A stretch of 64,000 nt of DNA from Octopus vulgaris (taxonomy: Eukaryota): positions 248,001 to 312,000 of the forward strand of contig OX597841.1 of NCBI GenBank assembly GCA_951406725.2, written 5' to 3'. The notes beneath the pieces are model-generated. The model saw only the letters and a program-made list of their open reading frames with translations. It was not told where the DNA came from and did not search any database. Of this stretch, positions 20,866 through 55,574 are shown piece by piece. Each line of letters opens with the position of its first letter. The stretch's first letter is position 1. Position numbers and translations under genes: made by a program.

Positions 20866-21374
20866 CGCTAGCCACTTCGCCGGAGGAGTGAGGATACAAC
20901 ACCAGTTGATCCTGTCTCCTCTCATCACCCACAAACTTCTCCACTAGACTTTCTACCTTTCTACCCTTGACGGATTCTCTTTTGGACTTTCTACACTCCG
21001 ATTGTACCTCTTCTTCCTATGGATTACTCTGGACTCTTCTGTTGATCAATATATATATATAGATATAGATATAGATATAGATATATTTATATTGTTATAT
21101 TTCGGAATGGTTATTTTGCCAGTTTAGCCAATAAAAACACACGCACTTTATATTTGGTGTTATTTTGCTTTAGTGTTATTTATTTTTACATTAATCTTAA
21201 TCTTATTTCGGCCAGAGTTCTTTCGTCACACTCCTGTGACCACATCAGTGATCTTTTGTTTTCTTCTTTCTTATTTATTGGCTAAACTGGCAAAATGACC
21301 ATTCCGAAAGATAACAATATCTGTTTCAACACACGACTTCACATAAAATATCTTGCACAACAAATATATAAACG

Positions 21375-24300
21375 TATCTTTCTGTCGAAGAGCGTAGGCT
21401 CGAAACGTAAAAGACTTGTTTTATTTCTATTCCTGAGCGCCATATTAATACAGTATTTGTTTGTACTCCACCTGCCTTCGTCTTTTGTTTATTTTCGTAA
21501 ACCTGCCTTCGTCTTTTGTTTATTTTCATAAACCTTCCTGTTATATATCACGCGCTCACGTGGTCACACTTTTATCCTATATTCTACCAACTCTTACCTT
21601 TCCATTGGATTGTTTTACCTCTAAGGATACCTGCCTTCTGACTGCACCTCTCCTTCACGGATCAAAGTGACTTTGTTATTGATGTGAAATCCTTAAAATA
21701 TACCACGACGTCTATACATTTTTAACATTGAACTTTCAACCTTGAACTTGTTCGTATATACAGTCCCTTTCGTTTTATTTTCTCATAAATTATCTTCATT
21801 TATTTTTTTTTACATTCATTTCACACTTCCACAATTTCCTGTATTTTTTTGTCCTTTCTGTCGTTTCTTCCTTCTCTGGATGTCCATACTCTGTTTTCTT
21901 TGCTTGCACCCCGTTTTTTTTTGCCTCCCTCTCTCTCTGCTTCCTCTCTTTCCTTTTTCTATTTGTCCCATCTTCTTCACCTTTATTTTCTGCTCCTACC
22001 GCTTTTTTTATCTAGTTTTTTCGAACGATTTTTTCTTTTTTCGAACGTTTGTTTTTTCCCCCCTTTTCCCCTTTTTTCCTCTCTCTCTTTTTTTTCGCTA
22101 TTCCACCATGCCGGATTATAAATCCTACCTCCTCACTATCCACCATCGTTCGAAAGATTTCCTCCGCCTACTCCCTCTAAACTGCTATCAGCCGTCCATT
22201 AACCTCTCTCTGCTTCTTTTTAAAAAAACCGCTTCTCTAGCCACGTCTCTTTTCTAAGCCGCTGCCTATATCACCGCCTCATCCCTAAAGATTTCCGCCT
22301 CCATTACCACCCTGCTCTCCACTCTGCTTCTTCCATCTTACCCATACTCCGCATCACATCTTACCGCCTTATGCGTGCCACTATTCGCTCCAATCTCTCT
22401 CAACTACATACCATCGAATGCCTTCTCCCTCCTGCTTTTTCCATCTTTTTCTTCTTTCTGCCGCCTTTCCATGCTCAAAACACGTTGCGCTTCATTATCC
22501 ATTTAAATCACCTCTTCCATCAATTTCTTTCCAATACCAAACTTCGTAAATCCCAATCACTCCTCTATTCAATCACACCCAACTCCACTACCCTTCTCCC
22601 CTCTTGATAGGCTCCACCCACCCACATCTAACCCCACTGTCCCTCCTAACCACCCCCACACACCTCCCCACTCCCTCCCCTCAGACCTCCACCAGCCCTA
22701 CCACCCCTCCTACTCCTATTCCATTCACCCCTTCTACTTCTATTCCATCCACCTCTTCTCCACTTCCGTCTGTTGTTACCATTCCCCCTGATCTTCCCCT
22801 CTCCGTGGCGTAACGCTCCGTCCTCAGTAGGGGTCTGCGTTTCATCCCTCTCACTCCATCTTGTAAGGAATTCCAGACGCGTGCTGATGTCCACAGCTTT
22901 GTGCGCCGCGTCCGGTTGGGTGCGTTTTTCCGCGACATACCATCCGCATCCAACGATGAGGACTGCTTCACTGACCTGGGCCGCCGACCATCCCTGTGGA
23001 CGCCTGCCCCCGGCCAGTTCCTAGCAGTGGATCTTTTCGCGGGTGCCTGTCAGCGTGCGTTGGAGCGGTTCAACTTCTCCAGGCGCCACCGCCGCCTCAA
23101 CATCTCCCCGGCTGAACTCTCGGTTCTTCGTTCCCTCCAACGGCGCGCTGACATTGTCATCAAACCGGCTGACAAGGGTGGAGCTGTGGTGGTGTGGCGC
23201 GTTGACCTCTACAGGGCTGAGGCGCTCCGCCAACTCAATGACACCTCCTTCTACTCCCCTCTGTCCTTTGACCCCACGCTTAGCTACCAAGAGACGGTAT
23301 CCTCTACTGTCCACGACCTCATCTCGTCCTCCCGTCTCCCCCACACGGAATCCAACCTCATTGTGCGAACCCCACGCACCCCCACAATTTACTTCCTCCC
23401 CAAAATCCACAAACGCAACAACCCTGGCCGCACCATCGTCTCCGCCTGTAACTGCCCCACGGAGCTCATCTCAAAATACCTCGACCGTGTCCTTGCCCCC
23501 CTAGTGGCGTCTCTTCCCTCCCACATCCACGATACAAACCATGCTCTCCGGCTTTTCAACTCTTTCTCCTTTCCTCCCGGCTCCTCCAATATCCTTTTTA
23601 CTATGGACATCCAGAGCCTCTATACCGTCATCCCTCACCACGAAGGACTGCGGGCACTTCAACACTTTCTCGACCTCCGCCCCAACCCTGAACCCGACAC
23701 CTCCACACTCATTCGTCTGGCCGAAATTGTCCTTTCTCTTAACTGTTTCTACCAACAATTCTCGGGAGTGGCCATGGGAACGCGAATGGGCCCCAACTAT
23801 GCGAACCTGTTCGTTGGCTATGTTGAGGCCCAAATATTCTCTAATTTCACTGGTCCCACTCCCGAACTATACGGTCGTTACATTGACGATATTATCGGTG
23901 CCACCTCACTCTCCCGTGAACATCTAGATTCTTTCTCTCTTTCGTTCAATCCTTCCATCCTGCCCTCCACTTCACCTCCACTATCTCCTACACCTCTGTC
24001 TCCTTCCTCGACATTTCGGTCAGCATTCATCACTCCACTCTTACCACCTCCATTCACTACAAACACACAGACTCACACTCATACCTAAACTTCTCTTCCT
24101 CCCACCCCAAACACACTAAGCTTTCCATCCCCTATTCTCAATTCCTCCGTCTACGTAGGCTCTGTAGTGACGACCATGACTTTAAGACTCAGTCTCAACT
24201 CATGGCTCGCCACTTCATCCTACGTGGATATCCCCTCACCACTATCCACACCGCCCTTGCCAGAGAACGTTCTGTAGACCGTGCATCTGCTCTCTCCCCT

Positions 24301-25740
24301 CGAACCCGCCCTGCAGTCTCCCGCCTCCCTTTTCCCCTCACTTACCACCCCACCACCCTACCTCTCCAACGCACCATTCTTCGAGCTTTCCGGCATCTCC
24401 AGTCTGACCCGTACACTTCACACCTCTTCCCTAACCAACCCTACCCTCTTTCAAACGAGCCCATAACCTACGAGACCTCTTGGTCCACAGCTTCTTCCCT
24501 GACCCTACCTCCCAACCTGGCTCGTTCCCCTGCTCCCGCCATGTTGCCGCACTTGCCCTTACCTCTCCAACACCACCCTCCTCACTGGCACCCATCATCG
24601 ACCTGATCGCATCCTCGACTCCTTCACCAGCACCTCCAGCAATATTATCTATTGCATCTCCTGCTCTCTCTGCCATTCCCTGTACATCGGACAAATGGGA
24701 CGCCGCTTGGCTGACCGGTTCGCGGAACACATCCGAGACATCCGCCTTGCCAACGATACACCGGTCTCACGCCGTTTCCGTTCCACCGGTAACTCCTTGG
24801 AACACCTGTCTGTGTTCGGATTGTCCTTGCACAGAGCCCATCCGGATTCCTGTTTGCGCAGTGAACAGGGATTAATCTTCTCTCTTCCCTCTTTCACGCC
24901 ATTTAGTCTCAACTCTCCCCACTTTTTCATTTAACCTCCCCGACTCCTACTTCTCTTCAGTCCTTCATCTTTTCACCCCTACTCTCTTTCTCTCCTTTCC
25001 TTTCTTCTCTTTCCACTTTCCCTCCTTTCCCTTCTTCCCTCTTCTTCTTTCTTCTTTCTTCTTCCCTCTTCCCCCTCTCTCTTTCTCTCTGCTCCCTCAC
25101 TCCCCTTCTCTTCCCCTCATCCTCCTCTCCCTCTCCCCTCTCTTCTTCCTTTCTCCTTCCATTCTCCTCCCCTTCCCCTTTCTTCTCCTCCCCTCCTCCT
25201 TCTCATCTTCTCCTCTCCTTCCTTCTCCTCTCCCTCGTCCTCCCCTCGCCCCCTCATCTCCCCTTCCCCTTGCTCTCCTCCCCCTCTCCCCCTCATCTCC
25301 CCTCTCCCTCTCCCCAACACCACACTACACTACACCATACGACATTACACATCACATCATACATACATACACACGTCCAAACCACCAGCCCTCTTCCACA
25401 TGCACATACATACTCTCTTATGCACACACGCACCTTCAGGTTGGAGCGCGGTCACTTTACCCTGTTATCTCCCCTACTATCCCTCTAGTGTCTAACGTCT
25501 GACCTCTAACGTTTGACCTCCGATCTCTGACTTCTGAAATCAGAACGCCATGTTGAATTGTTAGCCCCTACATGCAATTTTTTCTCTCCTTGTTTCTTTT
25601 CTGTGTATCTTTCTGTCGAAGAGCGTAGGCTTGAAACGTAAAAGACTTGTTTTATTTCTATTCCTCAGCGCCATAGTAATACATTATTTGTTTGTACTAC
25701 AACTGCCTTCGTCTTTTGTTTATTTTCATAAACCTTCCCG

Positions 25741-25742
<2 letters not shown>
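21375..25742 (+). mobile_element. Penelope-like retroelement (probably Neptune-type), degenerate, in intron 2 of gene B, with direct pseudo-LTRs
   Basis: RT and GIY-YIG coding remnants between two copies (~21375-21535 and ~25575-25742) of a repeat containing TCTTTCTGTCGAAGAGCGTAGGCTYGAAACGTAAAAGAC. The 3' end runs into (TA)n. Confidence 0.9.
22088..24934 (+). pseudogene. Penelope-like RT-GIY-YIG polyprotein with frameshifts and stops
   Basis: Motifs IVIKPADKGGAVVV, YFLPKIHK, MDIQSLYT, FYQQFSGVAMG, GRYIDDI; frameshift near 23940; then SFLDI, YLNFSSSHP, IPYSQFLRLRRLCS, and GIY-YIG-type NIIYCISCSLC..LYIGQMGRRLADRFAEH...EQGLI...LN. Confidence 0.92.
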
Positions 25743-25790
<48 letters not shown>

Positions 25791-30145: not shown

Positions 30146-30204
<59 letters not shown>

Positions 30205-30809
30205 CAACAGACTTCTTTCAGTTTCCGCCAACCAAATCTACTCACAAGGCTTTGGTCGGCCAGACTCGAAGATATTTGCGAAAGTTGCCCCGAAATGGGA
30301 CTGAACATGGAACCAAGTGGTTGGTAAGCAAATAAGTAACTTTATAATTACATGAGTATAAATTATCAAATAATTATTTAGTAGTTGTGAGCATGCGAAT
30401 TTACAGTCAGAAGACATAAATACTTTAAAATATAATAGTTTATGAAATATACGCTGAGTGAAAAGTATTATGTGGATTTCTTACATGCTAAAAATAGCAG
30501 TCAAAGTCTAAAACCACGAAAGAATATTCTTACATTAAAGCACGTTGATTTGTAATCAAGCAACACATTTGAGTGAATAAAAATATAGTAAACCTTATAC
30601 TAAAGAGTTTCGGTATTAATGACAAAATAAATCAATTAATGAAATAATTTATTGATTAATTAATTTTCTATAGCTCGTCGGAAAGGTCGCTAATTGAATG
30701 CATAAACATAAAACTGCAATACATATCGAAAACACAAATTAAACAGATGCGCACTCTGGTCCATGTTTATGCATCATTGATTCATCTCAGAATGACCGCA
30801 AACAATGTG

Positions 30810-30874
<65 letters not shown>

Positions 30875-30980
30875 TATTAGAGACAAAACCACTATTTTGC
30901 AAAACAAACAAGGAAAGACTTAATCAATACATAAAATTTTAATAAATAGTCAAAAAAAAAATATATATATATATATATAT

Positions 30981-31243
30981 CCTCCCGAAGAACCTAAGAG
31001 ACCTGCATGGGGTGGATTCAGATATCTTTAAAATGAATCTGGATCTCTTCCTGTCAGGTATCCCAGATAAACCAACTTCACGGCAGGAGGTGCAGATGAG
31101 GGCAGCTGCATCGAACTCTCTCATGCACCAAATGGCAGTTGCTAAAAAGCTTTCGTGAAGTAAAACCATGTAGCAACACCGAATGGCGGTGCCCCAGCTT
31201 GGCCACTGCTCATGAGCTGAAACTAGAATCAATCAATCAATCA
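30981..31243 (+). mobile_element. 5'-truncated LINE 3' end (CR1/Jockey-group-like) with (AATC)n tail
   Basis: LPKNLRDLHGVDSDIFKMNLDLFLSGIPDKP...AASNSLMHQ, short 3' UTR and AATCAATCAATC tail, embedded in (TA)n. Confidence 0.7.
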
Positions 31244-31263
31244 TATATATATATATATATATA

Positions 31264-34200
31264 GTAGACAATTTAGGGTAGCAAAAAAAAAATTCAATAG
31301 AAATTTATCGCTACCAGCGGCCTAGTGGAAAAGAGAAAATAGTCAACGACTAAATATATAAATATAACAATTTAGGAGTGACCCTAACAGGTCATTCGTC
31401 TACCAGAAAGAGCAGCCATAACTCACACCGCCAAGTAGTAGTAATTCAGAAATTAGGTGAAAATTTAAAAGCATTTACCCTAATTCATCTTTTAGACGAT
31501 GCATCGTTTCTGTGTCATTAATGATTAAATTAGCTTAATTAAATTAAATTAAGCCAATCTACCATAGGTTACACTTCATCAGTAAAAAACCTGGGAGAGA
31601 CAAATATACACGAGGCGTCTGTATCGATGCCTACGGAATATCTGTCTTAAAATTTTCAAGACTGACGTATTCGCGCCAAACTTATCAGCAGTAAATATAA
31701 ACTGCCGATTCAATCTCAGAATTATTCAGAAAATTATCAATTAGTCAATTTAGGGTAGCAAAAAAAATTCAATAGAAATTTATCGCTACCAGCGGCCTAG
31801 TGGAAAAGAGAAAATAGTCAACGACTAAATATATAAATATAACAATTTAGGAGTGACCCTAACAGGTCATTCGTCCACCAGAAAGAGCAGCCATAACTCA
31901 CACCGCCAAGTAGTAGTAATTCAGAAATTAGGTGAAAATTTAAAAACATTTACCCTAATTCATCTTTTAGACGATGCATCGTTTCTGTGTCATTAATGAT
32001 TAAATTAGCTTAATTAAATTAAATTAAGCCAATCTACCATAGGTTACACTTCATCAGTAAAAAACCTGGGAGAGACAAATATACACGAGGCGTCTGTATC
32101 GATGCCTACGGAATATCTGTCTTAAAATTTTCAAGACTGACGTATTCGCGCCAAACTTATCAGCAGTAAATATAAACTGCCGATTCAATCTCAGAATTAT
32201 TCAGAAAATTATCAATTAGTCAATTTAGGGTAGCAAAAAAAAATTCAATAGAAATTTATCGCTACCAGCGGCCTAGTGGAAAAGAGAAAATAGTCAACGA
32301 CTAAATATATAAATATAACAATTTAGGAGTGACCCTAACAGGTCATTCGTCCACCAGAAAGAGCAGCCATAACTCACACCGCCAAGTAGTAGTAATTCAG
32401 AAATTAGGTGAAAATTTAAAAACATTTACCCTAATTCATCTTTTAGACGATGCATCGTTTCTGTGTCATTAATGATTAAATTAGCTTAATTAAATTAAAT
32501 TAAGCCAATCTACCATAGGTTACACTTCATCAGTAAAAAACCTGGGAGAGACAAATATACACGAGGCGTCTGTATCGATGCCTACGGAATATCTGTCTTA
32601 AAATTTTCAAGACTGACGTATTCGCGCCAAACTTATCAGCAGTAAATATAAACTGCCGATTCAATCTCAGAATTATTCAGAAAATTATCAATTAGTCAAT
32701 TTAGGGTAGCAAAAAAATTCAATAGAAATTTATCGCTACCAGCGGCCTAGTGGAAAAGAGAAAATAGTCAACGACTAAATATATAAATATAACAATTTAG
32801 GAGTGACCCTAACAGGTCATTCGTCCACCAGAAAGAGCAGCCATAACTCACACCGCCAAGTAGTAGTAATTCAGAAATTAGGTGAAAATTTAAAAACATT
32901 TACCCTAATTCATCTTTTAGACGATGCATCGTTTCTGTGTCATTAATGATTAAATTAGCTTAATTAAATTAAATTAAGCCAATCTACCATAGGTTACACT
33001 TCATCAGTAAAAAACCTGGGAGAGACAAATATACACGAGTTGTCTGTATCGATGCCAACGGAATATCTGTCTTAAAATTTTCAAGACTGACGTATTCGCG
33101 CCAAACTTATCAGCAGTAAATATAAACTGCCGATTCAATCTCAGAATTATTCAGAAAATTATCAATTAGTCAATAAAGGGTAGCAAAAAAATTCAATAGA
33201 AATTTATCGCTACCAGCGGCCTTGTGGAAAAGAGAAAATAGTCAACGACTAAATATATAAATATAACAATTTAGGAGTGACCCTAACAGGTCATTCGTCC
33301 ACCAGAAAGAGCAGCCATAACTCACACCGCCAAGTAGTAGTAATTCAGAAATTAGGTGAAAATTTAAAAACATTTACCCTAATTCATCTTTTAGACGATG
33401 CATCGTTTCTGTGTCATTAATGATTAAATTAGCTTAATTAAATTAAATTAAGCCAATCTACCATAGGTTACACTTCATCAGTAAAAAACCTGGGAGAGAC
33501 AAATATACACGAGGCGTCTGTATCGATGCCTACGGAATATCTGTCTTAAAATTTTCAAGACTGACGTATTCGCGCCAAACTTATCAGCAGTAAATATAAA
33601 CTGCCGATTCAATCTCAGAATTATTCAGAAAATTATCAATTAGTCAATTTAGGGTAGCAAAAAAAAATTCAATAGAAATTTATCGCTACCAGCGGCCTAG
33701 TGGAAAAGAGAAAATAGTCAACGACTAAATATATAAATATAACAATTTAGGAGTGACCCTAACAGGTCATTCGTCCACCAGAAAGAGCAGCCATAACTCA
33801 CACCGCCAAGTAGTAGTAATTCAGAAATTAGGTGAAAATTTAAAAACATTTACCCTAATTCATCTTTTAGACGATGCATCGTTTCTGTGTCATTAATGAT
33901 TAAATTAGCTTAATTAAATTAAATTAAGCCAATCTACCATAGGTTACACTTCATCAGTAAAAAACCTGGGAGAGACAAATATACACGAGGCGTCTGTATC
34001 GATGCCTACGGAATATCTGTCTTAAAATTTTCAAGACTGACGTATTCGCGCCAAACTTATCAGCAGTAAATATAAACTGCCGATTCAATCTCAGAATTAT
34101 TCAGAAAATTATCAATTAGTCAATTTAGGGTAGCAAAAAAAATTCAATAGAAATTTATCGCTACCAGCGGCCTAGTGGAAAAGAGAAAATAGTCAACGAC

Positions 34201-37200
34201 TAAATATATAAATATAACAATTTAGGAGTGACCCTAACAGGTCATTCGTCCACCAGAAAGAGCAGCCATAACTCACACCGCCAAGTAGTAGTAATTCAGA
34301 AATTAGGTGAAAATTTAAAAACATTTACCCTAATTCATCTTTTAGACGATGCATCGTTTCTGTGTCATTAATGATTAAATTAGCTTAATTAAATTAAATT
34401 AAGCCAATCTACCATAGGTTACACTTCATCAGTAAAAAACCTGGGAGAGACAAATATACACGAGGCGTCTGTATCGATGCCTACGGAATATCTGTCTTAA
34501 AATTTTCAAGACTGACGTATTCGCGCCAAACTTATCAGCAGTAAATATAAACTGCCGATTCAATCTCAGAATTATTCAGAAAATTATCAATTAGTCAATT
34601 TAGGGTAGCAAAAAAAATTCAATAGAAATTTATCGCTACCAGCGGCCTAGTGGAAAAGAGAAAATAGTCAACGACTAAATATATAAATATAACAATTTAG
34701 GAGTGACCCTAACAGGTCATTCGTCCACCAGAAAGAGCAGCCATAACTCACACCGCCAAGTAGTAGTAATTCAGAAATTAGGTGAAAATTTAAAAACATT
34801 TACCCTAATTCATCTTTTAGACGATGCATCGTTTCTGTGTCATTAATGATTAAATTAGCTTAATTAAATTAAATTAAGCCAATCTACCATAGGTTACACT
34901 TCATCAGTAAAAAACCTGGGAGAGACAAATATACACGAGGCGTCTGTATCGATGCCTACGGAATATCTGTCTTAAAATTTTCAAGACTGACGTATTCGCG
35001 CCAAACTTATCAGCAGTAAATATAAATTGCCGATTCAATCTCAGAATTATTCAGAAAATTATCAATTAGTCAATGTAGGGTAGCAAAAAAATTCAATAGA
35101 AATTTATCGCTACCAGCGGCCTTGTGGAAAAGAGAAAATAGTCAACGACTAAATATATAAATATAACAATTTAGGAGTGACCCTAACAGGTCATTCGTCC
35201 ACCAGAAAGAGCAGCCATAACTCACACCGCCAAGTAGTAGTAATTCAGAAATTAGGTGAAAATTTAAAAACATTTACCCTAATTCATCTTTTAGACGATG
35301 CATCGTTTCTGTGTCATTAATGATTAAATTAGCTTAATTAAATTAAATTAAGCCAATCTACCATAGGTTACACTTCATCAGTAAAAAACCTGGGAGAGAC
35401 AAATATACACGAGGCGTCTGTATCGATGCCTACGGAATATCTGTCTTAAAATTTTCAAGACTGACGTATTCGCGCCAAACTTATCAGCAGTAAATATAAA
35501 CTGCCGATTCAATCTCAGAATTATTCAGAAAATTATCAATTAGTCAATTTAGGGTAGCAAAAAAATTCAATAGAAATTTATCGCTACCAGCGGCCTAGTG
35601 GAAAAGAGAAAATAGTCAACGACTAAATATATAAATATAACAATTTAGGAGTGACCCTAACAGGTCATTCGTCCACCAGAAAGAGCAGCCATAACTCACA
35701 CCGCCAAGTAGTAGTAATTCAGAAATTAGGTGAAAATTTAAAAACATTTACCCTAATTCATCTTTTAGACGATGCATCGTTTCTGTGTCATTAATGATTA
35801 AATTAGCTTAATTAAATTAAATTAAGCAATCTACCATAGGTTACACTTCATCAGTAAAAAACCTGGGAGAGACAAATATACACGAGGCGTCTGTATCGAT
35901 GCCTACGGAATATCTGTCTTAAAATTTTCAAGACTGACGTATTCGCGCCAAACTTATCAGCAGTAAATATAAACTGCCGATTCAATCTCAGAATTATTCA
36001 GAAAATTATCAATTAGTCAATTTAGGGTAGCAAAAAAAATTCAATAGAAATTTATCGCTACCAGCGGCCTAGTGGAAAAGAGAAAATAGTCAACGACTAA
36101 ATATATAAATATAACAATTTAGGAGTGACCCTAACAGGTCATTCGTCCACCAGAAAGAGCAGCCATAACTCACACCGCCAAGTAGTAGTAATTCAGAAAT
36201 TAGGTGAAAATTTAAAAACATTTACCCTAATTCATCTTTTAGACGATGCATCGTTTCTGTGTCATTAATGATTAAATTAGCTTAATTAAATTAAATTAAG
36301 CTAATCTACCATAGGTTACACTTCATCAGTAAAAAACCTGGGAGAGACAAATATACACGAGGCGTCTGTATCGATGCCTACGGAATATCTGTCTTAAAAT
36401 TTTCAAGACTGACGTATTCGCGCCAAACTTATCAGCAGTAAATATAAACTGCCGATTCAATCTCAGAATTATTCAGAAAATTATCAATTAGTCAATTTAG
36501 GGTAGCAAAAAAAATTCAATAGAAATTTATCGCTACCAGCGGCCTAGTGGAAAAGAGAAAATAGTCAACGACTAAATATATAAATATAACAATTTAGGAG
36601 TGACCCTAACAGGTCATTCGTCCACCAGAAAGAGCAGCCATAACTCACACCGCCAAGTAGTAGTAATTCAGAAATTAGGTGAAAATTTAAAAACATTTAC
36701 CCTAATTCATCTTTTAGACGATGCATCGTTTCTGTGTCATTAATGATTAAATTAGCTTAATTAAATTAAATTAAGCTAATCTACCATAGGTTACACTTCA
36801 TCAGTAAAAAACCTGGGAGAGACAAATATACACGAGGCGTCTGTATCGATGCCTACGGAATATCTGTCTTAAAATTTTCAAGACTGACGTATTCGCGCCA
36901 AACTTATCAGGAGTAAATATAAACTGCCGATTCAATCTCAGAATTATTCAGAAAATTATCAATTAGTAGATTTAGGGTAGCAAAAAAAAATTCAATAGAA
37001 ATTTATCGCTACCAGCGGCCTAGTGGAAAAGAGAAAATAGTCAACGACTAAATATATAAATATAACAATTTAGGAGTGACCCTAACAGGTCATTCGTCCA
37101 CCAGAAAGAGCAGCCATAACTCACACCGCCAAGTAGTAGTAATTCAGAAATTAGGTGAAAATTTAAAAACATTTACCCTAATTCATCTTTTAGACGATGC

Positions 37201-37790
37201 ATCGTTTCTGTGTCATTAATGATTAAATTAGCTTAATTAAATTAAATTAAGCTAATCTACCATAGGTTACACTTCATCAGTAAAAAACCTGGGAGAGACA
37301 AATATACACGAGGCGTCTGTATCGATGCCTACGGAATATCTGTCTTAAAATTTTCAAGACTGACGTATTCGCGCCAAACTTATCAGCAGTAAATATAAAC
37401 TGCCGATTCAATCTCAGAATTATTCAGAAAATTATCAATTAGTCAATTTAGGGTAGCAAAAAAATTCAATAGAAATTTATCGCTACCAGCGGCCTAGTGG
37501 AAAAGAGAAAATAGTCAACGACTAAATATATAAATATAACAATTTAGGAGTGACCCTAACAGGTCATTCGTCCACCAGAAAGAGCAGCCATAACTCACAC
37601 CGCCAAGTAGTAGTAATTCAGAAATTAGGTGAAAATTTAAAAACATTTACCCTAATTCATCTTTTAGACGATGCATCGTTTCTGTGTCATTAATGATTAA
37701 ATTAGCTTAATTAAATTAAATTAGCAATCTACCATAGGTACACTTCATCAGTAAAAAACCTGGGAGAGACAAATATACACAAGGCGTCTG
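31264..37790 (-). repeat. ~475-bp tandem array, left half (13 full + 1 partial units; hammerhead sense on minus strand)
   Basis: Marker TAGGGTAGCAAAA recurs at about 31274, 31751, 32226, 32702, 33176, 33650, 34126, 34601, 35076, 35550, 36023, 36498, 36973 and 37449 (period 473-477). Units are nearly identical. Confidence 0.97.
31488..31589 (-). ncRNA. Type I hammerhead-ribozyme-like motif (representative of 14 minus-strand copies)
   Basis: Reverse complement of the same motif: TCTTTTAGACGATGCATCGTTTCTGTGT...ACACTTCATCAGTAAAAAA. Confidence 0.75.
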
Positions 37791-40700
37791 TTTTTGCTAC
37801 CCTAAATTGACTAATTGATAATTTTCTGAATAATTCTGAGATTGAATCGGCAGTTTATATTTACTGCTGATAAGTTTGGCGCGAATACGTCAGTCTTGAA
37901 AATTTTAAGACAGATATTCCGTAGGCATCGATACAGACGCCTCGTGTATATTTGTCTCTCCCAGGTTTTTTACTGATGAAGTGTAACCTATGGTAGATTA
38001 GCTTAATTTAATTTAATTAAGCTAATTTAATCATTAATGACACAGAAACGATGCATCGTCTAAAAGATGAATTAGGGTAAATGTTTTTAAATTTTCACCT
38101 AATTTCTGAATTACTACTACTTGGCGGTGTGAGTTATGGCTGCTCTTTCTGGTGGACGAATGACCTGTTAGGGTCACTCCTAAATTGTTATATTTATATA
38201 TTTAGTCGTTGACTATTTTCTCTTTTCCACTAGGCCGCTGGTAGCGATAAATTTCTATTGAATTTTTTTGCTACCCTAAATTGACTAATTGATAATTTTC
38301 TGAATAATTCTGAGATTGAATCGGCAGTTTATATTTACTGCTGATAAGTTTGGCGCGAATACGTCAGTCTTGAAAATTTTAAGACAGATATTCCGTAGGC
38401 ATCGATACAGACGCCTCGTGTATATTTGTCTCTCCCAGGTTTTTTACTGATGAAGTGTAACCTATGGTAGATTAGCTTAATTTAATTTAATTAAGCTAAT
38501 TTAATCATTAATGACACAGAAACGATGCATCGTCTAAAAGATGAATTAGGGTAAATGTTTTTAAATTTTCACCTAATTTCTGAATTACTACTACTTGGCG
38601 GTGTGAGTTATGGCTGCTCTTTCTGGTGGACGAATGACCTGTTAGGGTCACTCCTAAATTGTTATATTTATATATTTAGTCGTTGACTATTTTCTCTTTT
38701 CCACTAGGCCGCTGGTAGCGATAAATTTCTATTGAATTTTTTTGCTACCCTAAATTGACTAATTGATAATTTTCTGAATAATTCTGAGATTGAATCGGCA
38801 GTTTATATTTACTGCTGATAAGTTTGGCGCGAATACGTCAGTCTTGAAAATTTTAAGACAGATATTCCTAGGCATCGATACAGACGCCTCGTGTATATTT
38901 GTCTCTCCCAGGTTTTTTACTGATGAAGTGTAACCTATGGTAGATTAGCTTAATTTAATTTAATTAAGCTAATTTAATCATTAATGACACAGAAACGTTG
39001 CATCGTCTAAAAGATGAATTAGGGTAAATGTTTTTAAATTTTCACCTAATTTCTGAATTACTACTACTTGGCGGTGTGAGTTATGGCTGCTCTTTCTGGT
39101 GGACGAATGACCTGTTAGGGTCACTCCTAAATTGTTATATTTATATATTTAGTCGTTGACTATTTTCTCTTTTCCACAAGGCCGCTGGTAGCGATAAATT
39201 TCTATTGAATTTTTTTTTGCTACCCTAAATTGACTAATTGATAATTTTCTGAATAATTCTGAGATTGAATCGGCAGTTTATATTTACTGCTGATAAGTTT
39301 GGCGCGAATACGTCAGTCTTGAAAATTTTAAGACAGATATTCCGTAGGCATCGATACAGACGCCTCGTGTATATTTGTCTCTCCCAGGTTTTTTACTGAT
39401 GAAGTGTAACCTATGGTAGATTAGCTTAATTTAATTTAATTAAGCTAATTTAATCATTAATGACACAGAAACGATGCATCGTCTAAAAGATGAATTAGGG
39501 TAAATGTTTTTAAATTTTCACCTAATTTCTGAATTACTACTACTTGGCGGTGTGAGTTATGGCTGCTCTTTCTGGTGGACGAATGACCTGTTAGGGTCAC
39601 TCCTAAATTGTTATATTTATATATTTAGTCGTTGACTATTTTCTCTTTTCCACAAGGCCGCTGGTAGCGATAAATTTCTATTGAATTTTTTTGCTACCCT
39701 AAATTGACTAATTGATAATTTTCTGAATAATTCTGAGATTGAATCGGCAGTTTATATTTACTGCTGATAAGTTTGGCGCGAATACGTCAGTCTTGAAAAT
39801 TTTAAGACAGATATTCCGTAGGCATCGATACAGACGCCTCGTGTATATTTGTCTCTCCCAGGTTTTTTACTGATGAAGTGTAACCTATGGTAGATTAGCT
39901 TAATTTAATTTAATTAAGCTAATTTAATCATTAATGACACAGAAACGATGCATCGTCTAAAAGATGAATTAGGGTAAATGTTTTTAAATTTTCACCTAAT
40001 TTCTGAATTACTACTACTTGGCGGTGTGAGTTATGGCTGCTCTTTCTGGTGGACGAATGACCTGTTAGGGTCACTCCTAAATTGTTATATTTATATATTT
40101 AGTCGTTGACTATTTTCTCTTTTCCACTAGGCCGCTGGTAGCGATAAATTTCTATTGAATTTTTTTGCTACCCTAAATTGACTAATTGATAATTTTCTGA
40201 ATAATTCTGAGATTGAATCGGCAGTTTATATTTACTGCTGATAAGTTTGGCGCGAATACGTCAGTCTTGAAAATTTTAAGACAGATATTCCCTAGGCATC
40301 GATACAGACGCCTCGTGTATATTTGTCTCTCCCAGGTTTTTTACTGATGAAGTGTAACCTATGGTAGATTAGCTTAATTTAATTTAATTAAGCTAATTTA
40401 ATCATTAATGACACAGAAACGATGCATCGTCTAAAAGATGAATTAGGGTAAATGTTTTTAAATTTTCACCTAATTTCTGAATTACTACTACTTGGCGGTG
40501 TGAGTTATGGCTGCTCTTTCTGGTGGACGAATGACCTGTTAGGGTCACTCCTAAATTGTTATATTTATATATTTAGTCGTTGACTATTTTCTCTTTTCCA
40601 CTAGGCCGCTGGTAGCGATAAATTTCTATTGAATTTTTTTTTGCTACCCTAAATTGACTAATTGATAATTTTCTGAATAATTCTGAGATTGAATCGGCAG

Positions 40701-43700
40701 TTTATATTTACTGCTGATAAGTTTGGCGCGAATACGTCAGTCTTGAAAATTTTAAGACAGATATTCCGTAGGCATCGATACAGACGCCTCGTGTATATTT
40801 GTCTCTCCCAGGTTTTTTACTGATGAAGTGTAACCTATGGTAGATTGGCTTAATTTAATTTAATTAAGCTAATTTAATCATTAATGACACAGAAACGATG
40901 CATCGTCTAAAAGATGAATTAGGGTAAATGTTTTTAAATTTTCACCTAATTTCTGAATTACTACTACTTGGCGGTGTGAGTTATGGCTGCTCTTTCTGGT
41001 GGACGAATGACCTGTTAGGGTCACTCCTAAATTGTTATATTTATATATTTAGTCGTTGACTATTTTCTCTTTTCCACTAGGCCGCTGGTAGCGATAAATT
41101 TCTATTGAATTTTTTTGCTAACCTAAATTGACTAATTGATAATTTTCTGAATAATTCTGAGATTGAATCGGCAGTTTATATTTACTGCTGATAAGTTTGG
41201 CGCGAATACGTCAGTCTTGAAAATTTTAAGACAGATATTCCGTAGGCATCGATACAGACGCCTCGTGTATATTTGTCTCTCCCAGGTTTTTTACTGATGA
41301 AGTGTAACCTATGGTAGATTGGCTTAATTTAATTTAATTAAGCTAATTTAATCATTAATGACACAGAAACGATGCATCGTCTAAAAGATGAATTAGGGTA
41401 AATGTTTTTAAATTTTCACCTAATTTCTGAATTACTACTACTTGGCGGTGTGAGTTATGGCTGCTCTTTCTGGTGGACGAATGACCTGTTAGGGTCACTC
41501 CTAAATTGTTATATTTATATATTTAGTCGTTGACTATTTTCTCTTTTCCACTAGGCCGCTGGTAGCGATAAATTTCTATTGAATTTTTTTTGCTACCCTA
41601 AATCTACTAATTGATAATTTTCTGAATAATTCTGAGATTGAATCGGCAGTTTATATTTACTGCTGATAAGTTTGGCGCGAATACGTCAGTCATGAAAATT
41701 TTAAGACAGATATTCCGTAGGCATCGATACAGACGCCTCGTGTATATTTGTCTCTCCCAGGTTTTTTACTGATGAAGTGTAACCTATGGTAGATTGGCTT
41801 AATTTAATTTAATTAAGCTAATTTAATCATTAATGACACAGAAACGATGCATCGTCTAAAAGATGAATTAGGGTAAATGTTTTTAAATTTTCACCTAATT
41901 TCTGAATTACTACTACTTGGCGGTGTGAGTTATGGCTGCTCTTTCTGGTGGACGAATGACCTGTTAGGGTCACTCCTAAATTGTTATATTTATATATTTA
42001 GTCGTTGACTATTTTCTCTTTTCCACAAGGCCGCTGGTAGCGATAAATTTCTATTGAATTTTTTTTGCTACCCTAAATTGACTAATTGATAATTTTCTGA
42101 ATAATTCTGAGATTGAATCGGCAGTTTATATTTACTGCTGATAAGTTTGGCGCGAATACGTCAGTCTTGAAAATTTTAAGACAGATATTCCGTAGGCATC
42201 GATACAGACGCCTCGTGTATATTTGTCTCTCCCAGGTTTTTTACTGATGAAGTGTAACCTATGGTAGATTGGCTTAATTTAATTTAATTAAGCTAATTTA
42301 ATCATTAATGACACAGAAACGATGCATCGTCTAAAAGATGAATTAGGGTAAATGTTTTTAAATTTTCACCTAATTTCTGAATTACTACTACTTGGCGGTG
42401 TGAGTTATGGCTGCTCTTTCTGGTGGACGAATGACCTGTTAGGGTCACTCCTAAATTGTTATATTTATATATTTAGTCGTTGACTATTTTCTCTTTTCCA
42501 CAAGGCCGCTGGTAGCGATAAATTTCTATTGAATTTTTTTTGCTACCCTAAATTGACTAATTGATAATTTTCTGAATAATTCTGAGATTGAATCGGCAGT
42601 TTATATTTACTGCTGATAAGTTTGGCGCGAATACGTCAGTCTTGAAAATTTTAAGACAGATATTCCGTAGGCATCGATACAGACGCCTCGTGTATATTTG
42701 TCTCTCCCAGGTTTTTTACTGATGAAGTGTAACCTATGGTAGATTGGCTTAATTTAATTTAATTAAGCTAATTTAATCATTAATGACACAGAAACGATGC
42801 ATCGTCTAAAAGATGAATTAGGGTAAATGTTTTTAAATTTTCACCTAATTTCTGAATTACTACTACTTGGCGGTGTGAGTTATGGCTGCTCTTTCTGGTG
42901 GACGAATGACCTGTTAGGGTCACTCCTAAATTGTTATATTTATATATTTAGTCGTTGACTATTTTCTCTTTTCCACTAGGCCGCTGGTAGCGATAAATTT
43001 CTATTGAATTTTTTTGCTACCCTAAATTGACTAATTGATAATTTTCTGAATAATTCTGAGATTGAATCGGCAGTTTATATTTACTGCTGATAAGTTTGGC
43101 GCGAATACGTCAGTCTTGAAAATTTTAAGACAGATATTCCGTAGGCATCGATACAGACGCCTCGTGTATATTTGTCTCTCCCAGGTTTTTTACTGATGAA
43201 GTGTAACCTATGGTAGATTGGCTTAATTTAATTTAATTAAGCTAATTTAATCATTAATGACACAGAAACGATGCATCGTCTAAAAGATGAATTAGGGTAA
43301 ATGTTTTTAAATTTTCACCTAATTTCTGAATTACTACTACTTGGCGGTGTGAGTTATGGCTGCTCTTTCTGGTGGACGAATGACCTGTTAGGGTCACTCC
43401 TAAATTGTTATATTTATATATTTAGTCGTTGACTATTTTCTCTTTCCACTAGGCCGCTGGTAGCGATAAATTTCTATTGAATTTTTTTTTGCTACCCTAA
43501 ATTGACTAATTGATAATTTTCTGAATAATTCTGAGATTGAATCGGCAGTTTATATTTACTGCTGATAAGTTTGGCGCGAATACGTCAGTCTTGAAAATTT
43601 TAAGACAGATATTCCGTAGGCATCGATACAGACGCCTCGTGTATATTTGTCTCTCCCAGGTTTTTTACTGATGAAGTGTAACCTATGGTAGATTGGCTTA

Positions 43701-44358
43701 ATTTAATTTAATTAAGCTAATTTAATCATTAATGACACAGAAACGATGCATCGTCTAAAAGATGAATTAGGGTAAATGTTTTTAAATTTTCACCTAATTT
43801 CTGAATTACTACTACTTGGCGGTGTGAGTTATGGCTGCTCTTTCTGGTGGACGAATGACCTGTTAGGGTCACTCCTAAATTGTTATATTTATATATTTAG
43901 TCGTTGACTATTTTCTCTTTTCCACTAGGCCGCTGGTAGCGATAAATTTCTATTGAATTTTTTTTGCTAACCTAAATTGACTAATTGATAATTTTCTGAA
44001 TAATTCTGAGATTGAATCGGCAGTTTATATTTACTGCTGATAAGTTTGGCGCGAATACGTCAGTCTTGAAAATTTTAAGACAGATATTCCGTAGGCATCG
44101 ATACAGACGCCTCGTGTATATTTGTCTCTCCCAGGTTTTTTACTGATGAAGTGTAACCTATGGTAGATTGGCTTAATTTAATTTAATTAAGCTAATTTAA
44201 TCATTAATGACACAGAAACGATGCATCGTCTAAAAGATGAATTAGGGTAAATGTTTTTAAATTTTCACCTAATTTCTGAATTACTACTACTTGGCGGTGT
44301 GAGTTATGGCTGCTCTTTCTGGTGGACGAATGACCTGTTAGGGTCACTCCTAAATTGT

Positions 44359-44362
<4 letters not shown>
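37791..44362 (+). repeat. ~475-bp tandem array, right half in inverted orientation (13 full + 1 partial units; hammerhead sense on plus strand)
   Basis: Reverse-complement marker TTTTGCTACCCTAAA (or ...AACCTAAA) recurs 14 times from ~37792 to ~43962. Junction is AAGGCGTCTG|TTTTTGCTAC; the array ends in (TA)n. Confidence 0.97.
37966..38067 (+). ncRNA. Type I hammerhead-ribozyme-like motif (representative of 14 plus-strand copies; last at ~44136-44237)
   Basis: TTTTTTA-CTGATGA-A-GTGT...ACAC-A-GAAA-CGATGCATCG-TC-TAAAAGA. Stem I TTTTA/TAAAA, intact CUGAUGA and GAAA boxes, palindromic stem III, GUC cleavage triplet at 38058-38060. The A.A apposition at the base of stem II is non-canonical. Confidence 0.75.
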
Positions 44363-44393
<31 letters not shown>

Positions 44394-47300
44394 ATAATAT
44401 TTGTGACTTGGAACCAGTGAAAGGATAATTAAACTATAGCATTTAACACCAATTCGAAGCCAAACAGTGTTAAACAATGTGTGTGTGTGTGCCTTTTGTT
44501 TGTAATTAAAAAGTGCACTGATAATTTCTGTGATACATGTAGAAACACGCAGGGAGAAGTTGGTGAAAACTGTTTGTGTTACAATGTTTCGAAGTCGATA
44601 ACCAAGTCACGTGGAATTGTTGATAGAGGCAAGAGTGCTTACGTGATTAATTGACGTTAAATGAAGAGGTATCTTTTGAGATGGCAACTAGGAAGGATTT
44701 AAATCGATTGTGTACGAATGCCGAACTATGAGAAAATCCACATTGACGAATACCTTTCTACAATGTAAGTCTTAGTCTAAGCGGAGAAGGAACACACACG
44801 AGGACGGAAAGTCTTTCCTGTAGATGTCACACGTGTATGACGAAAGATTCATGGATAATGGCCATGCGTTAGAATAAGAACAGTAGCAAACGAGTGAAGA
44901 GCGAAGATATGGTGCGTGTGTTTATTTGGCAAATAAACAAGAACAACGACAGTAATTTTATTCAGCTGAATACACGTTATTGATTGGTTGAAATTACCGA
45001 AATACGACAACTTTAACGTGGAATAACTTCGTAAATATAAGTTTTTCTCCAAAATGCTGAGAGTAAAATATGTTTTATATGACACATTCTATCAGTGTCC
45101 GAAGTTTCAAAGTGTTTAGTTGCGAAAAAATTATTTTCTAAATCTGTATGTCAAAAGGTAAAGATCCTATAACGAGATAATAAATAACGTCCTCGCAAAT
45201 CGTTGTACTCAAGATACACAATACTTGTACTTACACTCGACAATATGCAACTCTCGGCTTTACACAGCTCACCGACTCTCCTTTTCTTTATTTGGCACCC
45301 AGGCCTTAACAGAGAGGGGACATCAAAAGGACAGACAGAACACAACAAATGGGGACAAAAAATATGCAGCGAACGCAAAATGAAAAAATGTATAATGAAA
45401 TCGATCCTGATGAAATGGCTGCATGAGCCCAACTCTGATTCTTTATTTAGGCACTCGGCAACTAACACGGAGGGGACACTACAAGGACAGACACAACACC
45501 ACAGTGGGGACAATAAACATAATAACGAATGAGCATGACTATTATATAATAATGAAAGATGAATGGTTGCATGAGCCCCACTCACAAGCAGTACCATTTA
45601 ACTGTTAATTTAGACAATTTTTTAGTTTTCTTTTATCTTTTTGCATTTTCTTTCCCATTTAAAAAAAAATCTATTTCCTTCATTTTTTCTTTCTTATTTT
45701 TTCTTCTCTTTTTACCTTTTTAAAGGACTCCTCTATTACCATTCATTAGGGGCATTAATTCCTCGTATTTATCTTCTTTTGGTAGTTGCTCAAATTAAAT
45801 TTCTTTCCCCAAAGGTTTCACATAGTTCTTTCAACCTTTTATACCTTTCCTTGTCAATCGCCACACCCTTGATGTGTTCCAGCTAACGTTCAGCTGGCAA
45901 TCCTATTCTTATGGCACCTTTGAATTTCCTTATTTTTCGCTCTATGTCGGTGCCGTTCACATATATTACTACAATCCACTTTTTCTTATTAGTAATTACT
46001 TGGTTACGCTCCGGACATGGGCCGTCCTGGCTATTCGTTTCCCTTCGTTCCTCCCTCTGTACATAACCATAACCGTCCACGATTATATTTTCCAATCTAT
46101 GTAGCGATACTTCTGCTGGGGTATCTGCCAGTTCATTGGTACTTCCTCTATTTTCTCAATTTTGCACCGTTGTCACGACTGGAGCGGCATCACGTGATGT
46201 AGAAACTATGTTAGCATGAATGCCTTTGGCAGGCTGAACCTTTTTTGTGCACGTGCTCGAGAATATCACGATGCCAAATATTCTCCATTTTCAAATATAA
46301 TATTCAGTTCTAGGAAAACCAATTTCCTTTAAGGGGATCGAAAACATCCCATTTTCCACCGGTTCTTCAGTTAAATACCCAATATGATAGAGAAAGATTT
46401 ATCAAAACTAAAAAGGGTATATATTCAATTTTGAAGCACTCCGTCGGTTACGACAACGAGGGTTCCGGTTGATCCGAATCAACGGAACAGCCTGCTCGTG
46501 AAATTAACGTGTAAGTGGCTGAGCACTCCACAGACACGTAGTTCTCGGGGATATTCAGCGTGACACAGAGAGTGACAAGGCCGGCCCTTTGAAATACAGG
46601 TACAACAGAAGCAGGAAGTAAGAGAGAGAAAGTTGTGGTGAAAGAGTACAGCAGGGATCACCACCATCCACTGCCGGAGCCTCGTGGAGCTTTAGGTGTT
46701 TTCGCTCAATAAACACTCACAACGCCCGGTCTGGGAATCGAAACCGCGATCCTATTACCGCGAGTGGCTGCCCTAACCACTGGGCCATTGCGCCTCCACA
46801 TATATCCAATATAGATAGATTAAAAGGATAGAGAGAATTACAATTTTAATATTTTTATCTTAATTTATTAACATTATAATACAATTATACTATAGGCGCA
46901 GGAGTGGCTGTGTGGTAAGTAGCTTACTTACCAACCACATGGTTCCGGGTTCAGTCCCACTGCGTGGCACCTGGGGCAAGTGTCTTCTACTATAGCCTTG
47001 GGCCGACCGAAGCCTTGTGAGTGGATTTGGTAAATGGAAACTAAAAGAAGACCGTCGTATATATATATGTATGTGTGTGTATTTGTGTTTGTCTCCCCAA
47101 CATCGCTTGACAACCGATGCTGGTGTGTTTCCGTCCCCGATACATAGCGGTTCGGCGAAAGAGACCGATAGAATAAGTACTCGGCTTACAAAGAATAAGT
47201 CCCGTGGTCGATTTGCTCGAGTAATGGGCGGTTTTCCATTAGACAAATTATTAACATTAGTTATCTCCCTTGCATCCTGTTGAAGCTCAAGTTTCGAACT

Positions 47301-49692: not shown

Positions 49693-49756
<64 letters not shown>

Positions 49757-52905: not shown

Positions 52906-55574
52906 AAATTGAATATATACCCTTTTTAGTTTTGATAAATCTTTCTCTATCATATTGGGTATTTAACTGAAGAACCGGTGGAAAATGGGATGTTTTCGAT
53001 CCCTTAAAGGAAATTGGTTTTCCTAGAACTGAATATTATATTTGAAAATGGAGAATATTTGGCATCATGATATTCTCGAGCACGTGCACAAAATGGTTCA
53101 GCCTGCCAAAGGCATTCATGCTAACATAGTTTCTACATCACGTGATGCCGCTCCAGTCGTGTCAACGGTGCAAAATTGAGTAAATAGAGGAGGTACCGAT
53201 GAACTGGCCGATACCCCAGCAGAAGTATCGCTACATAGATTGGAAAATATAATCGTGGACGGTTATGGTTATGTACAGAGGGATGAACGAAGGGAAACGA
53301 ATAGCCAGGACGGCCCATGTCCGGAGCGTAACCAAGTAATTACTAATAAGAAAAAGTGGATTGTAGTAATATATGTGAAAAGCACCGACATAGAGCGAAA
53401 AATAAGGAAATTCAAAGGTGCCATAAGAATAGGATTGCCAGCTGAACGTTAGCTGGAACACATCAAGGGTGTGGCGATTGACAAGGAAAGGTATAAAAGG
53501 TTGAAAGGACTATGTGAACCCTTTGGGGAAAGAAATTTAATTTGAGCAACTACCAAAAGAAGATAAATACGAGGAATTAATACCCCTAATGAATGGTAAT
53601 AGAGGAGTCCTTTAAAAAGGGAAAAAGAGAAGAAAAAATAAGAAAGAAAAAATGAAGGAAATAGATTTTTTTTTAAATGGGAAAGAAAATGCAAAAAGAT
53701 AAAAGAAAACTAAAAAATTGTCTAAATTAACAGTTAAATGGTACTGCTTGTGAGTGGGGCTCATGCAACCATTCATCTTTCATTATTATATAATAGTCAT
53801 GCTCATTCGTTATTATGTTTATTGTCCCCACTGTGGTGTTGTGTCTGTCCTTGTAGTGTCCCCTCCGTGTTAGTTGCCGAGTGCCTAAATAAAGAATCGG
53901 AGTGGGGCTCATGCAGCCATTTCATCAGGATCGATTTCATTATACATTTTTTCATTTTGCGTTCGCTGCATATTTTTTGTCCCCATTTGTTGTGTTCTGT
54001 CTGTCCTTTTGTTGTCCCCTCTCTGTTAAGGCCTGGGTGCCAAATAAAGAAAAGGAGAGTCGGTGAGCTGTGTAAAGCCGAGAGTTGCGTATTGTCGAGT
54101 GTAAGTACAAGTATTGTGTATCTTGAGTACAACGATTTGCGAGGACGTTATTTATTATCTCGTTATAGGATCTTTACCTTTTGACCTACAGATTTAGAAA
54201 ATAATTTTTTCGCAACTAAACACTTTGAAACTTCGGACACTGATAGAATGTGTCATATAAAACATATTTTACTCTCAGCATTTTGGAGAAAAACTTATAT
54301 TTACGAAGTTATTTCACGTTAAAGTTGTCGTATTTCGGTAATTTCAACCAATCAATAACGTGTATTCAGCTGAATAAAATTACTGTCGTTGTTCTTGTTT
54401 ATTTGCCAAATAAACACACGCACCATATCTTCGCTCTTCACTCGTTTACTACTGTTCTTATTCTAACTCATTGCCATTATCCATGAATCTTTCATCATAC
54501 ACGTGTGACATCTACAGGAAAGACTTTCCGTCCTCGTGTGTGTTCCTTCTCCGCTTAGACTAAGACTTACATTGTAGAAAGGCATTCGTCAATGTGGATT
54601 TTCTCATAGTTCGGCATTCGTACACAATCGATTTAAATCCTTCCTAGTTGCCATCTCAAAAGATACCTCTTCATTTAACATCAATTAATCACGTAAGCAC
54701 TCTTGCCTCTATCAACATTTCCACGTGACTTGGTTATCGATTTCGAAACATTGTAACAAGAACAGTTTTCACCAACTTCTCTCTGCGTGTTTCTACATGT
54801 ATCACAGAAATTATCAGTGCACTTTTTAATTACAAACAAAAGGCATACACACACATTGTTTAACACTGTTTGGCTTTGAATTGGTGTTAAATGCTATAGT
54901 TTAATTATCCTTTCACTGGTTCCAAGTCACAAAGATTATATACATGTATATATATATATGTATATGTTGCACCATGTTTGCGGGCATTCTGAGATGAATC
55001 AATGATGCATAAACATGGACCAGAGTGCGCATCTGTTTAATTTGTGTTTTCGATATGTATTGCAGTTTTATGTTTATGCATTTAATTAGCGACCTTTCCG
55101 ACGAGCTATAGAAAATTAATTAATCAATAAATTATTTCATTAAATGATTTATTTTGTCTTTAATAGTGAAACCCTTGAGTATAAGGTTTACTATATTTTT
55201 ATTCACTCAAATGTGTTGCTTGATTACAAATCAACGTGCTTTAATGTAAGAATATTCTTTCGTGGTTTTAGACTTTGACTGCTATTTTTAGCATGTAAGA
55301 AATCCACATGATACTTATCACTCCGCGTATATTTCATATACTATTATATTTAAAAGTATTTATGTCTTCTGACTGTAAATTCGCATGCTCACAACTACTA
55401 AATAATTATTTGATAATTTTTACTCTTGTAATTACAAAGTTACTTATTTGCTTACCAACCACTTGGTTCCATGTTGAGTCCCATTTCGGGGCAACTTTCG
55501 CAAATATCTTCGAGTCTGGCCGACCAAAGCCTTGTGAGTAGATTTGGTTGGCGGAAACTGAAAGAAGTCTGTTG

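Follow-up and report, generated by a model that had tools for sequence, protein, structure and literature searches.

Hammerhead-bearing tandem units in Octopus vulgaris: a candidate non-LTR retrozyme family with a Penelope-like integration footprint

Architecture of the array and its insertion site

The present analysis concerns a stretch of 64,000 nt from Octopus vulgaris (assembly GCA_951406725.2, contig OX597841.1, positions 248,001 to 312,000 of the forward strand; hereafter, the window), in which an array of short hammerhead-bearing units, a candidate retrozyme, occupies positions 31264 to 44362 (Table 1). The array is a 13-kb head-to-head palindrome without spacer, the two arms of which (6527 and 6584 bp, 14 hammerhead units each) diverge from position 37791, such that only one arm is sense in any given transcript. 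Tandem Repeats Finder (TRF) reports two adjoining period-474 arrays of opposite orientation, 31265-37791 and 37791-44371, with 99% matches. The CTGATGA core occurs 28 times, 14 on the plus strand (37973...44143) and 14 on the minus strand (37751...31582), and each of the 26 complete units is 473-476 nt long; 18 columns vary among them. In a unit trimer, no stop-to-stop frame is longer than 55 aa, and the 474-nt unit does not contain the open reading frame (ORF) for reverse transcriptase (RT) and GIY-YIG endonuclease that would make it an autonomous Penelope-like element (PLE). A preliminary description of the window, which had listed 28 nearly identical hammerhead units of about 475 bp with no ORF of 60 aa or more, is thus accurate on all of these points. 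The monomer folds far better than its shuffled versions (z -6.2, and z -6.9 for the circular fold).

Table 1. Coordinates of the array, its hammerhead, the insertion site, and related elements (positions refer to the window unless a locus is given).
Feature	Position	Strand	Remarks
Left arm	31264..37791	-	13.8 tandem units, read leftwards; 5' end cut at unit position 347
Left arm, outer 3' end		-	site B, about 227 nt past the cleavage site
Right arm	37791..44362	+	13.9 tandem units, read rightwards; 5' end cut at unit position 205
Right arm, outer 3' end		+	site A, about 131-135 nt past the cleavage site
Head-to-head junction of two 5'-truncated arms	37791		1-nt overlap, no spacer
Reference monomer, cleavage site to cleavage site	38061..38534	+	474 nt, 33.8% GC, non-coding, strongly structured
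"Tail" between sites A and B	31265..31360	-	about 93 nt; only at the left end of the window insertion
CCTAAATTG motif directly upstream of site B	31269..31277	-	candidate cis element for the start of reverse transcription
CCTAAATTG motif directly upstream of site A	44349..44357	+
(TA)n target tract, left flank	31243..31263
(TA)n target tract, right flank	44359..44400
Empty paralogous site	54937..54965	-	both flanks contiguous across a short TA tract; inverted segmental duplicate
Type I hammerhead, first of 14 on plus strand	37966..38067	+	predicted cut after 38060
Stem I	37966-72/38061-67	+	7-8 bp across units
Hammerhead core	37973-79	+
A.A at 10.1/11.1	37980/38044	+
Stem II	37981-38043	+	64-nt AU-rich hairpin with GTGT/ACAC; z -7.6
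GAAA box	38045-48	+
Palindromic stem III	38048-59	+	12 nt; C17 at 38060
Family 2	L065 (G000:C12:43452748-43455961), loci L064-L093		canonical G10.1-C11.1
Family 3	L046:3485-4520, loci L136-L165		copies 97-100% identical; 1989 candidates
Neighbouring PLE	21374..25745	+	ORF fragments (RT and C-terminal part) at 22814-24934, spread over three frames
pLTR copies of the neighbouring PLE	20443-20630, 21374-21545, 25575-25745		short hammerhead-like motif, core CTGTCGA (A6 changed)
Very young autonomous PLE, intact 775-aa ORF	L186-L205 (e.g., G000:C3:57250300-57257000)		many identical copies
Second young PLE, intact 781-aa ORF	L124-L135 (e.g., G000:C16:20834500-20841000)		36-nt tail

In two paralogous segments, one within the window and a second at L207:3616-3650, the flanks of the array adjoin each other across a short TA tract. 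As both of these sites are empty, the array inserted after a recent segmental duplication. The duplication is inverted and 90-97% identical, the segments 26575-30842 and 44374-47623 matching 51456-59635, and a third copy (L207) lies directly upstream of the window. About 420 bp of other repeat ends (30843-31263) are inserted in the TA tract that holds the array and are absent from the empty paralogous site.

The hammerhead

All 28 cores of the window have the invariant positions of a hammerhead ribozyme, namely C3-A9, G12-A14, and A15.1-U16.1, together with an NUH triplet (positions follow hammerhead numbering). The motifs given in the preliminary description (CTGATGA, GTGT/ACAC, GAAA, the palindrome, and the C17 of a GUC site) are present, and its type I topology is corroborated by covariation with a sister family (family 2, see below). 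The same description considered stem III too tight to close as a monomeric hairpin and cleavage to require a dimer. Neither proposal is supported here, since stem III closes alone as 4 bp with a UGCA tetraloop, and the monomeric hammerhead fold lies only 1.6 kcal/mol above the local minimum free energy (4.5 within the whole unit). A 12-bp stem III duplex between two monomers is also available (-18.7). The suggested comparison with Rfam left the hammerhead unrecognised: there is no match at the gathering score in the window, and no hammerhead family is found among the nine matches at E<=10 in 37800-38600. The long stem II may be behind the missing match.

The alignment used for covariation comprises 19 distinct sequences (5 family-1 and 15 family-2 rows are given). 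Over families 1 and 2 the core is invariant except for N7, 8 of 17 pairs are changed on both sides (at most 4 in slid controls), and 87% of the cells are paired, compared to 26-54% in the slid controls. The hammerhead is more than a chance occurrence, because a sister family that is 73% identical retains the core while its stems covary. Judged from this pattern of substitutions, the predicted hammerhead is under structural constraint. The element is very probably a retrozyme with a working or recently working ribozyme.

The pair at the base of stem II deserves separate mention. Position 10.1-11.1 is G-C in 14 of the 15 family-2 rows and in family 3 and A.A in family 1, which confirms that the latter is non-canonical. 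Because the two other families have G10.1-C11.1, the A.A closure is peculiar to a currently amplifying lineage. A look through the literature for cleavage rates of hammerheads mismatched at 10.1-11.1 yielded none. In stem III, family 1 has a double change that is fully linked in the arm haplotypes (35 versus 29 of 64 arms), one window unit carrying one of the two changes alone. A third variant, A-U at 15.3-16.3 (places 38050 and 38057), appears in contigs from public runs.

Two further CTGATGA..GAAA matches in the window, at 11742 and 47980, are at chance level and were rejected; 47965-48020 has no hammerhead fold. The second match lies in a duplicated segment (47791-48107 and 49437-49753), one copy of which has CTGATGA, a short hairpin, and GAAA, with unconvincing stems I and III.

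Dispersed copies and their ends

A search of the 2.8-Gb host assembly with one unit gave 1748 first-look candidates, of which the 39 best-scoring were analysed together with the window (40 loci). These 39 contain 222 matches on many contigs, and the 150 listed are 95-100% identical. The array is thus one insertion of a young, dispersed, non-coding mobile family (family 1), and the mobile, retrozyme-type unit proposed in the preliminary description is well founded. Several features expected of non-LTR retrozymes are found, namely short non-coding tandem units of low GC content with a hammerhead, dispersed recent loci, and no long terminal repeat (LTR) architecture. The two-armed, head-to-head arrangement is seen in 28 of the 40 loci.

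Two further families have the same design. Family 2, which was reached via a 78%-identical fragment adjoining one locus, has 470-nt units, 2536 candidates, and the same two ends; its 73% identity to family 1 extends over the whole unit. Family 3 consists of 593-nt hammerhead tandem units without alignable similarity to family 1, and its ends lie 194 and 297 nt after the cut. One family-3 copy is located in the same TA tract as a family-1 insertion.

The outer 3' ends run into TA repeats and fall at two positions of the unit, site A at about 131-135 nt past the cut, with BLAST alignments extending to 144 within TA, and site B at about 224-236. Of 68 such ends in family 1, 34 are at A, 31 at B, and 3 elsewhere, and all 25 scorable two-armed loci combine one A with one B (p about 3e-8 if independent). 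The 5' ends are scattered, and the head-to-head junctions mostly have an overlap or a gap below 8 nt. The segment between the sites, the tail, is about 93 nt in family 1, 87 in family 2, and 103 in family 3. A+B pairs number 12 of 16 in family 2, where one B per pair is built in by a query ending at B, and 16 in family 3, as read by eye, mainly from the 150 matches listed of 179. Within each family, both sites are preceded by a related motif, CCTAAATT in family 1, CCTTATATT in family 2, and CCCTTYATT in family 3.

This arrangement is the one known from PLEs, the insertions of which are accompanied by a truncated copy in inverted orientation and have a tail of 30-40 bp, in most cases at one end, as described in 10.1101/2021.04.23.441226. 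According to PMC11167929, the PLE protein, a predicted dimer, nicks and extends both strands in vitro, with reverse transcription beginning at two positions inside the RNA, which mark the limits of the tail. Such internal starts would make a circle possible as template. As a control, we examined the autonomous 775-aa PLE of the same genome, for which 20 inverted pairs were collected as opposite-strand endonuclease matches within 10 kb. In 19 of the 19 scorable pairs (17 by pattern, 2 by eye) its 32-nt tail is at one end only, and the 781-aa PLE obeys the one-site-per-end rule in 2 of 2 pairs. On the basis of these ends, the insertion is very likely PLE-driven. The mobilisation by Penelope-like machinery suggested earlier from proximity accordingly gains stronger grounds.

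Three other ideas about the ends can be set aside. Stalling of the RT at a hairpin was rejected, as the apparent clustering of 5' ends between positions 355 and 380 lacks significance (11 ends within 25 nt, a number reached in 34 of 500 simulations), and so was L1-style twin priming in which the B arm would end at site A, as the B-arm 5' ends are scattered. Synchronous synthesis of the arms is unsupported, because the arm lengths are uncorrelated (Spearman -0.14).

Nature of the template

Opposite arms of one locus differ by 0.07% (24 comparisons), compared to 1.4% between loci (1991 comparisons), and 29 haplotypes are present in the 40 loci. At positions covered at least twice, 18 locus-private variants occur in every covering unit (12 loci; 9 span both arms) and 64 in a single unit. 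Minority variants are mirrored between arms in 2 cases and unmirrored in 47, over 19,006 bases covered in register. The cleavage junction is crossed exactly in 177 of 178 cases, the remaining one being a substitution. These patterns suggest one continuous monomer template per insertion, probably a circle; for the circular monomer itself, we regard the balance as somewhat favourable.

The strongest alternative, which we nevertheless consider unlikely, is that a PLE carries out twin priming on an uncleaved linear multimeric transcript, with the family-1 hammerhead crippled by A.A or acting elsewhere and the arrays growing and homogenising as DNA. Such a scenario would fit with the PAc system of PMC11167929, in which hammerhead mutants still insert, unprocessed RNA is the main template, and cleavage is dispensable in vitro. 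It would also fit with median arms of only about 800-900 bp and with 5' ends that do not pile up at the cut, while DNA-level exchange or multimeric templates are evident from the period-2 variants in L037, L041, L055, and L060 and from the mixed composition of the window array. On the other hand, the scarcity of mirrored unit-specific variants (1 versus 27 when the window is excluded) and the 18 private variants fixed in every unit argue against multimeric templates, the 29 homogeneous haplotypes would require many monomer-to-multimer steps, and repeated 5' truncation would shorten the arrays every generation.

If the template were a cleaved linear monomer, tandems could form when the RT, on reaching the 5' end, returns to the 3' end of that molecule, and each locus would have a single haplotype with no need for ligation. 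The same direction is indicated by a few 5' ends that coincide with the cut or lie next to it (L006, L050, L067, L093, L161) and by one family-3 3' end located 3 nt before it (L158). However, none of the 178 junction crossings has an indel or an added base, and ends within 3 nt of the cut amount to 2/68, 2/46, and 1/26; in no family does run-off at the cleavage site reach significance. Exact junctions and the missing pile-up together argue against such jumps, and we find this scenario very improbable. Least probable of all is a DNA-level element (a satellite, a Helitron-like or miniature inverted-repeat (MITE) array, or reinserted extrachromosomal circular DNA) with an incidental or fossil hammerhead, or else an assembly fold-back: the tandem structure and signs of unequal exchange would suit the former, and a spacer-less perfect 13-kb palindrome with near-equal arms is a structure that assemblers can invent, but the termini are fixed 3' ends at different unit positions with random inner ends, the hammerhead covaries, 28 of 40 loci and the autonomous PLE have the same architecture, and the arms are not mirror copies, which also led us to reject a simple fold-back duplication of the array.

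The RNA itself was sought in public data. The unit stretch is found in 19 of 24 public-run rows, none of them on record as RNA; the contigs, from 4 runs, are uninformative on ends, strand, and level, and their 474-nt backward joint fits arrays and circles alike. Since an RNA spanning the two arms would pair with itself as a duplex of 6.5 kb, the source loci are more likely to be single-armed or internally promoted.

Penelope-like elements in the window and the genome

The PLE located 5.5-10 kb from the array (Table 1) matches RVT_1 with E 5.5e-7 and shares 26% identity with the 781-aa protein. Three frames are needed to cover its broken ORF, and its pseudo-LTR (pLTR) has no blastn match to the 474-nt unit. 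This element was therefore rejected as the partner, and the weight that the preliminary description placed on its proximity is not supported.

The two young intact PLEs are candidate enzymes; the label Neptune-like follows from a CxxC linker before the GIY-YIG motif. The 775-aa element forms full tandems of about 4.27 kb with an AC-rich tail, and its pLTR hammerhead reads CCGAAGA in the youngest copies. The 781-aa element has a repetitive 3' untranslated region and a degenerate hammerhead core, TTGATAA. The site A motif of the 775-aa family resembles that of family 2 in 11 of 12 letters, a comparison made by eye and post hoc that serves as a lead only. The partner search through GIY-YIG loci scored the best 150 of 6136 and the best 150 of 17197 candidates, and the 50 loci sampled from it gave no homologous element.

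Two other features of the window may be mentioned. Two inverted paralogous small ORFs with about 77% DNA identity, near 4444-4806 and 14438-14890, have a signal-peptide-like start and four cysteines; related pieces in L208 suggest a gene cluster of small secreted proteins. At 16925-18120 there are 40 copies of a 30-bp minisatellite with 96% matches.

Proposed cycle and points against it

By its architecture, the element is a putative non-LTR retrozyme with one canonical pair missing, and its ends indicate that it integrates like a PLE. Our preferred interpretation, which we hold with reasonable though not high confidence, is a young, non-autonomous element of the non-LTR-retrozyme type that parasitises a (TA)n-targeting PLE via a cleaved circular monomer. 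In this cycle, an array would be transcribed, and the hammerheads would cut the transcript into 474-nt monomers, either as monomers or via the 12-bp palindromic dimer, perhaps assisted by a protein. A host ligase would then close the monomer, by analogy with known retrozymes. The PLE RT-endonuclease, probably a dimer, would nick both strands of a (TA)n tract, as the footprint indicates, and prime on one template at site A from one strand and at site B, 93 nt downstream, from the other. Each complementary DNA would run repeatedly round the presumed circle across the cleavage junction and stop at random, and the two truncated products would be joined head to head with little or no spacer, as seen in the insertions. 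The window copy would be an unusually long product, probably lengthened or homogenised later by DNA exchange.

A more specific version is that the insertions are footprints of rolling-circle target-primed reverse transcription, in which one PLE dimer uses both target strands and two dedicated sites on a single ribozyme-made circle. We put this forward tentatively, at slightly less than even confidence. Under such a reading, a minimum of three retrozyme families in the genome, of which two have no sequence relationship, would have a common CCT-W-H-ATT-like start motif at both sites.

A number of observations weigh against the preferred interpretation. With respect to the ribozyme, both self-cleavage of the family-1 hammerhead and the RNA circle are predictions, and family 1 does not have the purine-pyrimidine pair at 10.1-11.1, where PMC4209133 calls G10.1-C11.1 highly conserved. 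Eight of nine predicted Xenopus retrozyme dimers did not cleave, and the PAc mutants cited above insert with a mutated hammerhead. The covariation mostly reflects one phylogenetic split between two families, and the covarying cells are for this reason not independent events; the linked double change in stem III could come from palindrome repair. With respect to integration, the usual tail length of 30-40 nt is exceeded roughly threefold, and one odd end is found in 3 of 28 family-1 pairs. Exceptions also occur in family 2 (1 B+B, 3 odd) and family 3 (1 apparent A+A, 2 odd). At the 50 GIY-YIG loci sampled, no pLTR homologous to the unit was found beyond an adjacent family-2 insertion and AT-rich words. 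Because the loci are the best scorers of 1748, young copies are favoured in the sample.

A pure circle is, in addition, at odds with several variants. Nine locus-private variants occur in some units only, L041 has a two-unit periodic variant mirrored in both arms, and L036 differs between its arms. At position 414, each arm of the window array contains both of two variants, 414A near the centre and 414G outside, a pattern that may be due to arm-to-arm conversion and unequal exchange. The variants seen in single units may include consensus errors.

Comparison with known systems

The copying enzyme of animal retrozymes and the circle as template are left as hypotheses in PMC7229834 and PMC7761336, and the mechanism of mobilisation "remains to be elucidated" according to 10.64898/2026.07.22.740005, in which the four invertebrates are three insects and a coral. 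The word "inverted" is absent from PMC7229834. In the open literature we found no report of a cephalopod retrozyme or of such a footprint in retrozymes; the families may already be catalogued in Repbase, Dfam, or subscription papers, which lay outside the search. The present case is of interest because almost every family-1 insertion has the PLE integration signature, in the same genome as young intact 775- and 781-aa PLEs that obey the same rule. For the in vitro PLE assay that already exists, family 1 provides a defined substrate of 474 nt with two mapped start sites, the young PLEs provide candidate enzymes, and the comparison of family 1 with family 2 is a natural test of an A.A-closed hammerhead against a G-C sister. 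If the rolling-circle reading is true, retrozyme circles would be tied mechanistically to PLE enzymes, and the PLE tail would correspond to strict one-site-per-strand priming on one molecule.

The metazoan non-LTR retrozymes of coral, mussel, and axolotl (PMC7229834) and of a vertebrate survey (10.64898/2026.07.22.740005) are described as short non-coding AT-rich tandem units with one type I hammerhead each, occurring as dispersed dimers to multimers with a structured monomer, and a PLE is proposed as their mobilising partner, all of which resembles family 1. In contrast, family 1 has a 64-nt stem II, a 12-nt palindromic stem III, and A.A at 10.1-11.1, and its unit, known here from sequence alone, is 474 nt long, compared to about 170-400 nt for the metazoan retrozymes shown as circles. 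A mismatch at the base of helix II is also found in the axolotl retrozyme hammerhead HHR_Amex2, which retains cleavage activity (22% within an hour for the monomer, and a higher value for the dimer; PMC7229834), although it is U.U rather than A.A and helices II and III are shorter.

The endonuclease-positive PLEs (Neptune, Poseidon, Naiad; 10.1101/2021.04.23.441226 and PMC11167929) resemble family 1 in their partial tandems, inverted 5'-truncated partner, one-end tail, and (TA)n targeting, and in the placement of a hammerhead ahead of the position where the RT starts (here, site A lies about 131-135 nt away; the 775-aa family is similar). Unlike these elements, family 1 lacks an ORF, its repeat comprises the entire unit, and its tail measures about 93 rather than 30-40 nt; the present families have a full helix III, and families 2 and 3 have no extra base between 9 and 10.1. 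The non-autonomous Chlamys elements (MRC1; 10.1101/2021.04.23.441226) differ in that their 3' sequence is, as a rule, also found in an autonomous family, and hammerheads are described as missing from most Chlamys elements. Finally, the published link between retrozymes and PLEs is based on common hammerheads, co-occurrence, and pLTR homology, while the link presented here is based on the integration footprint.

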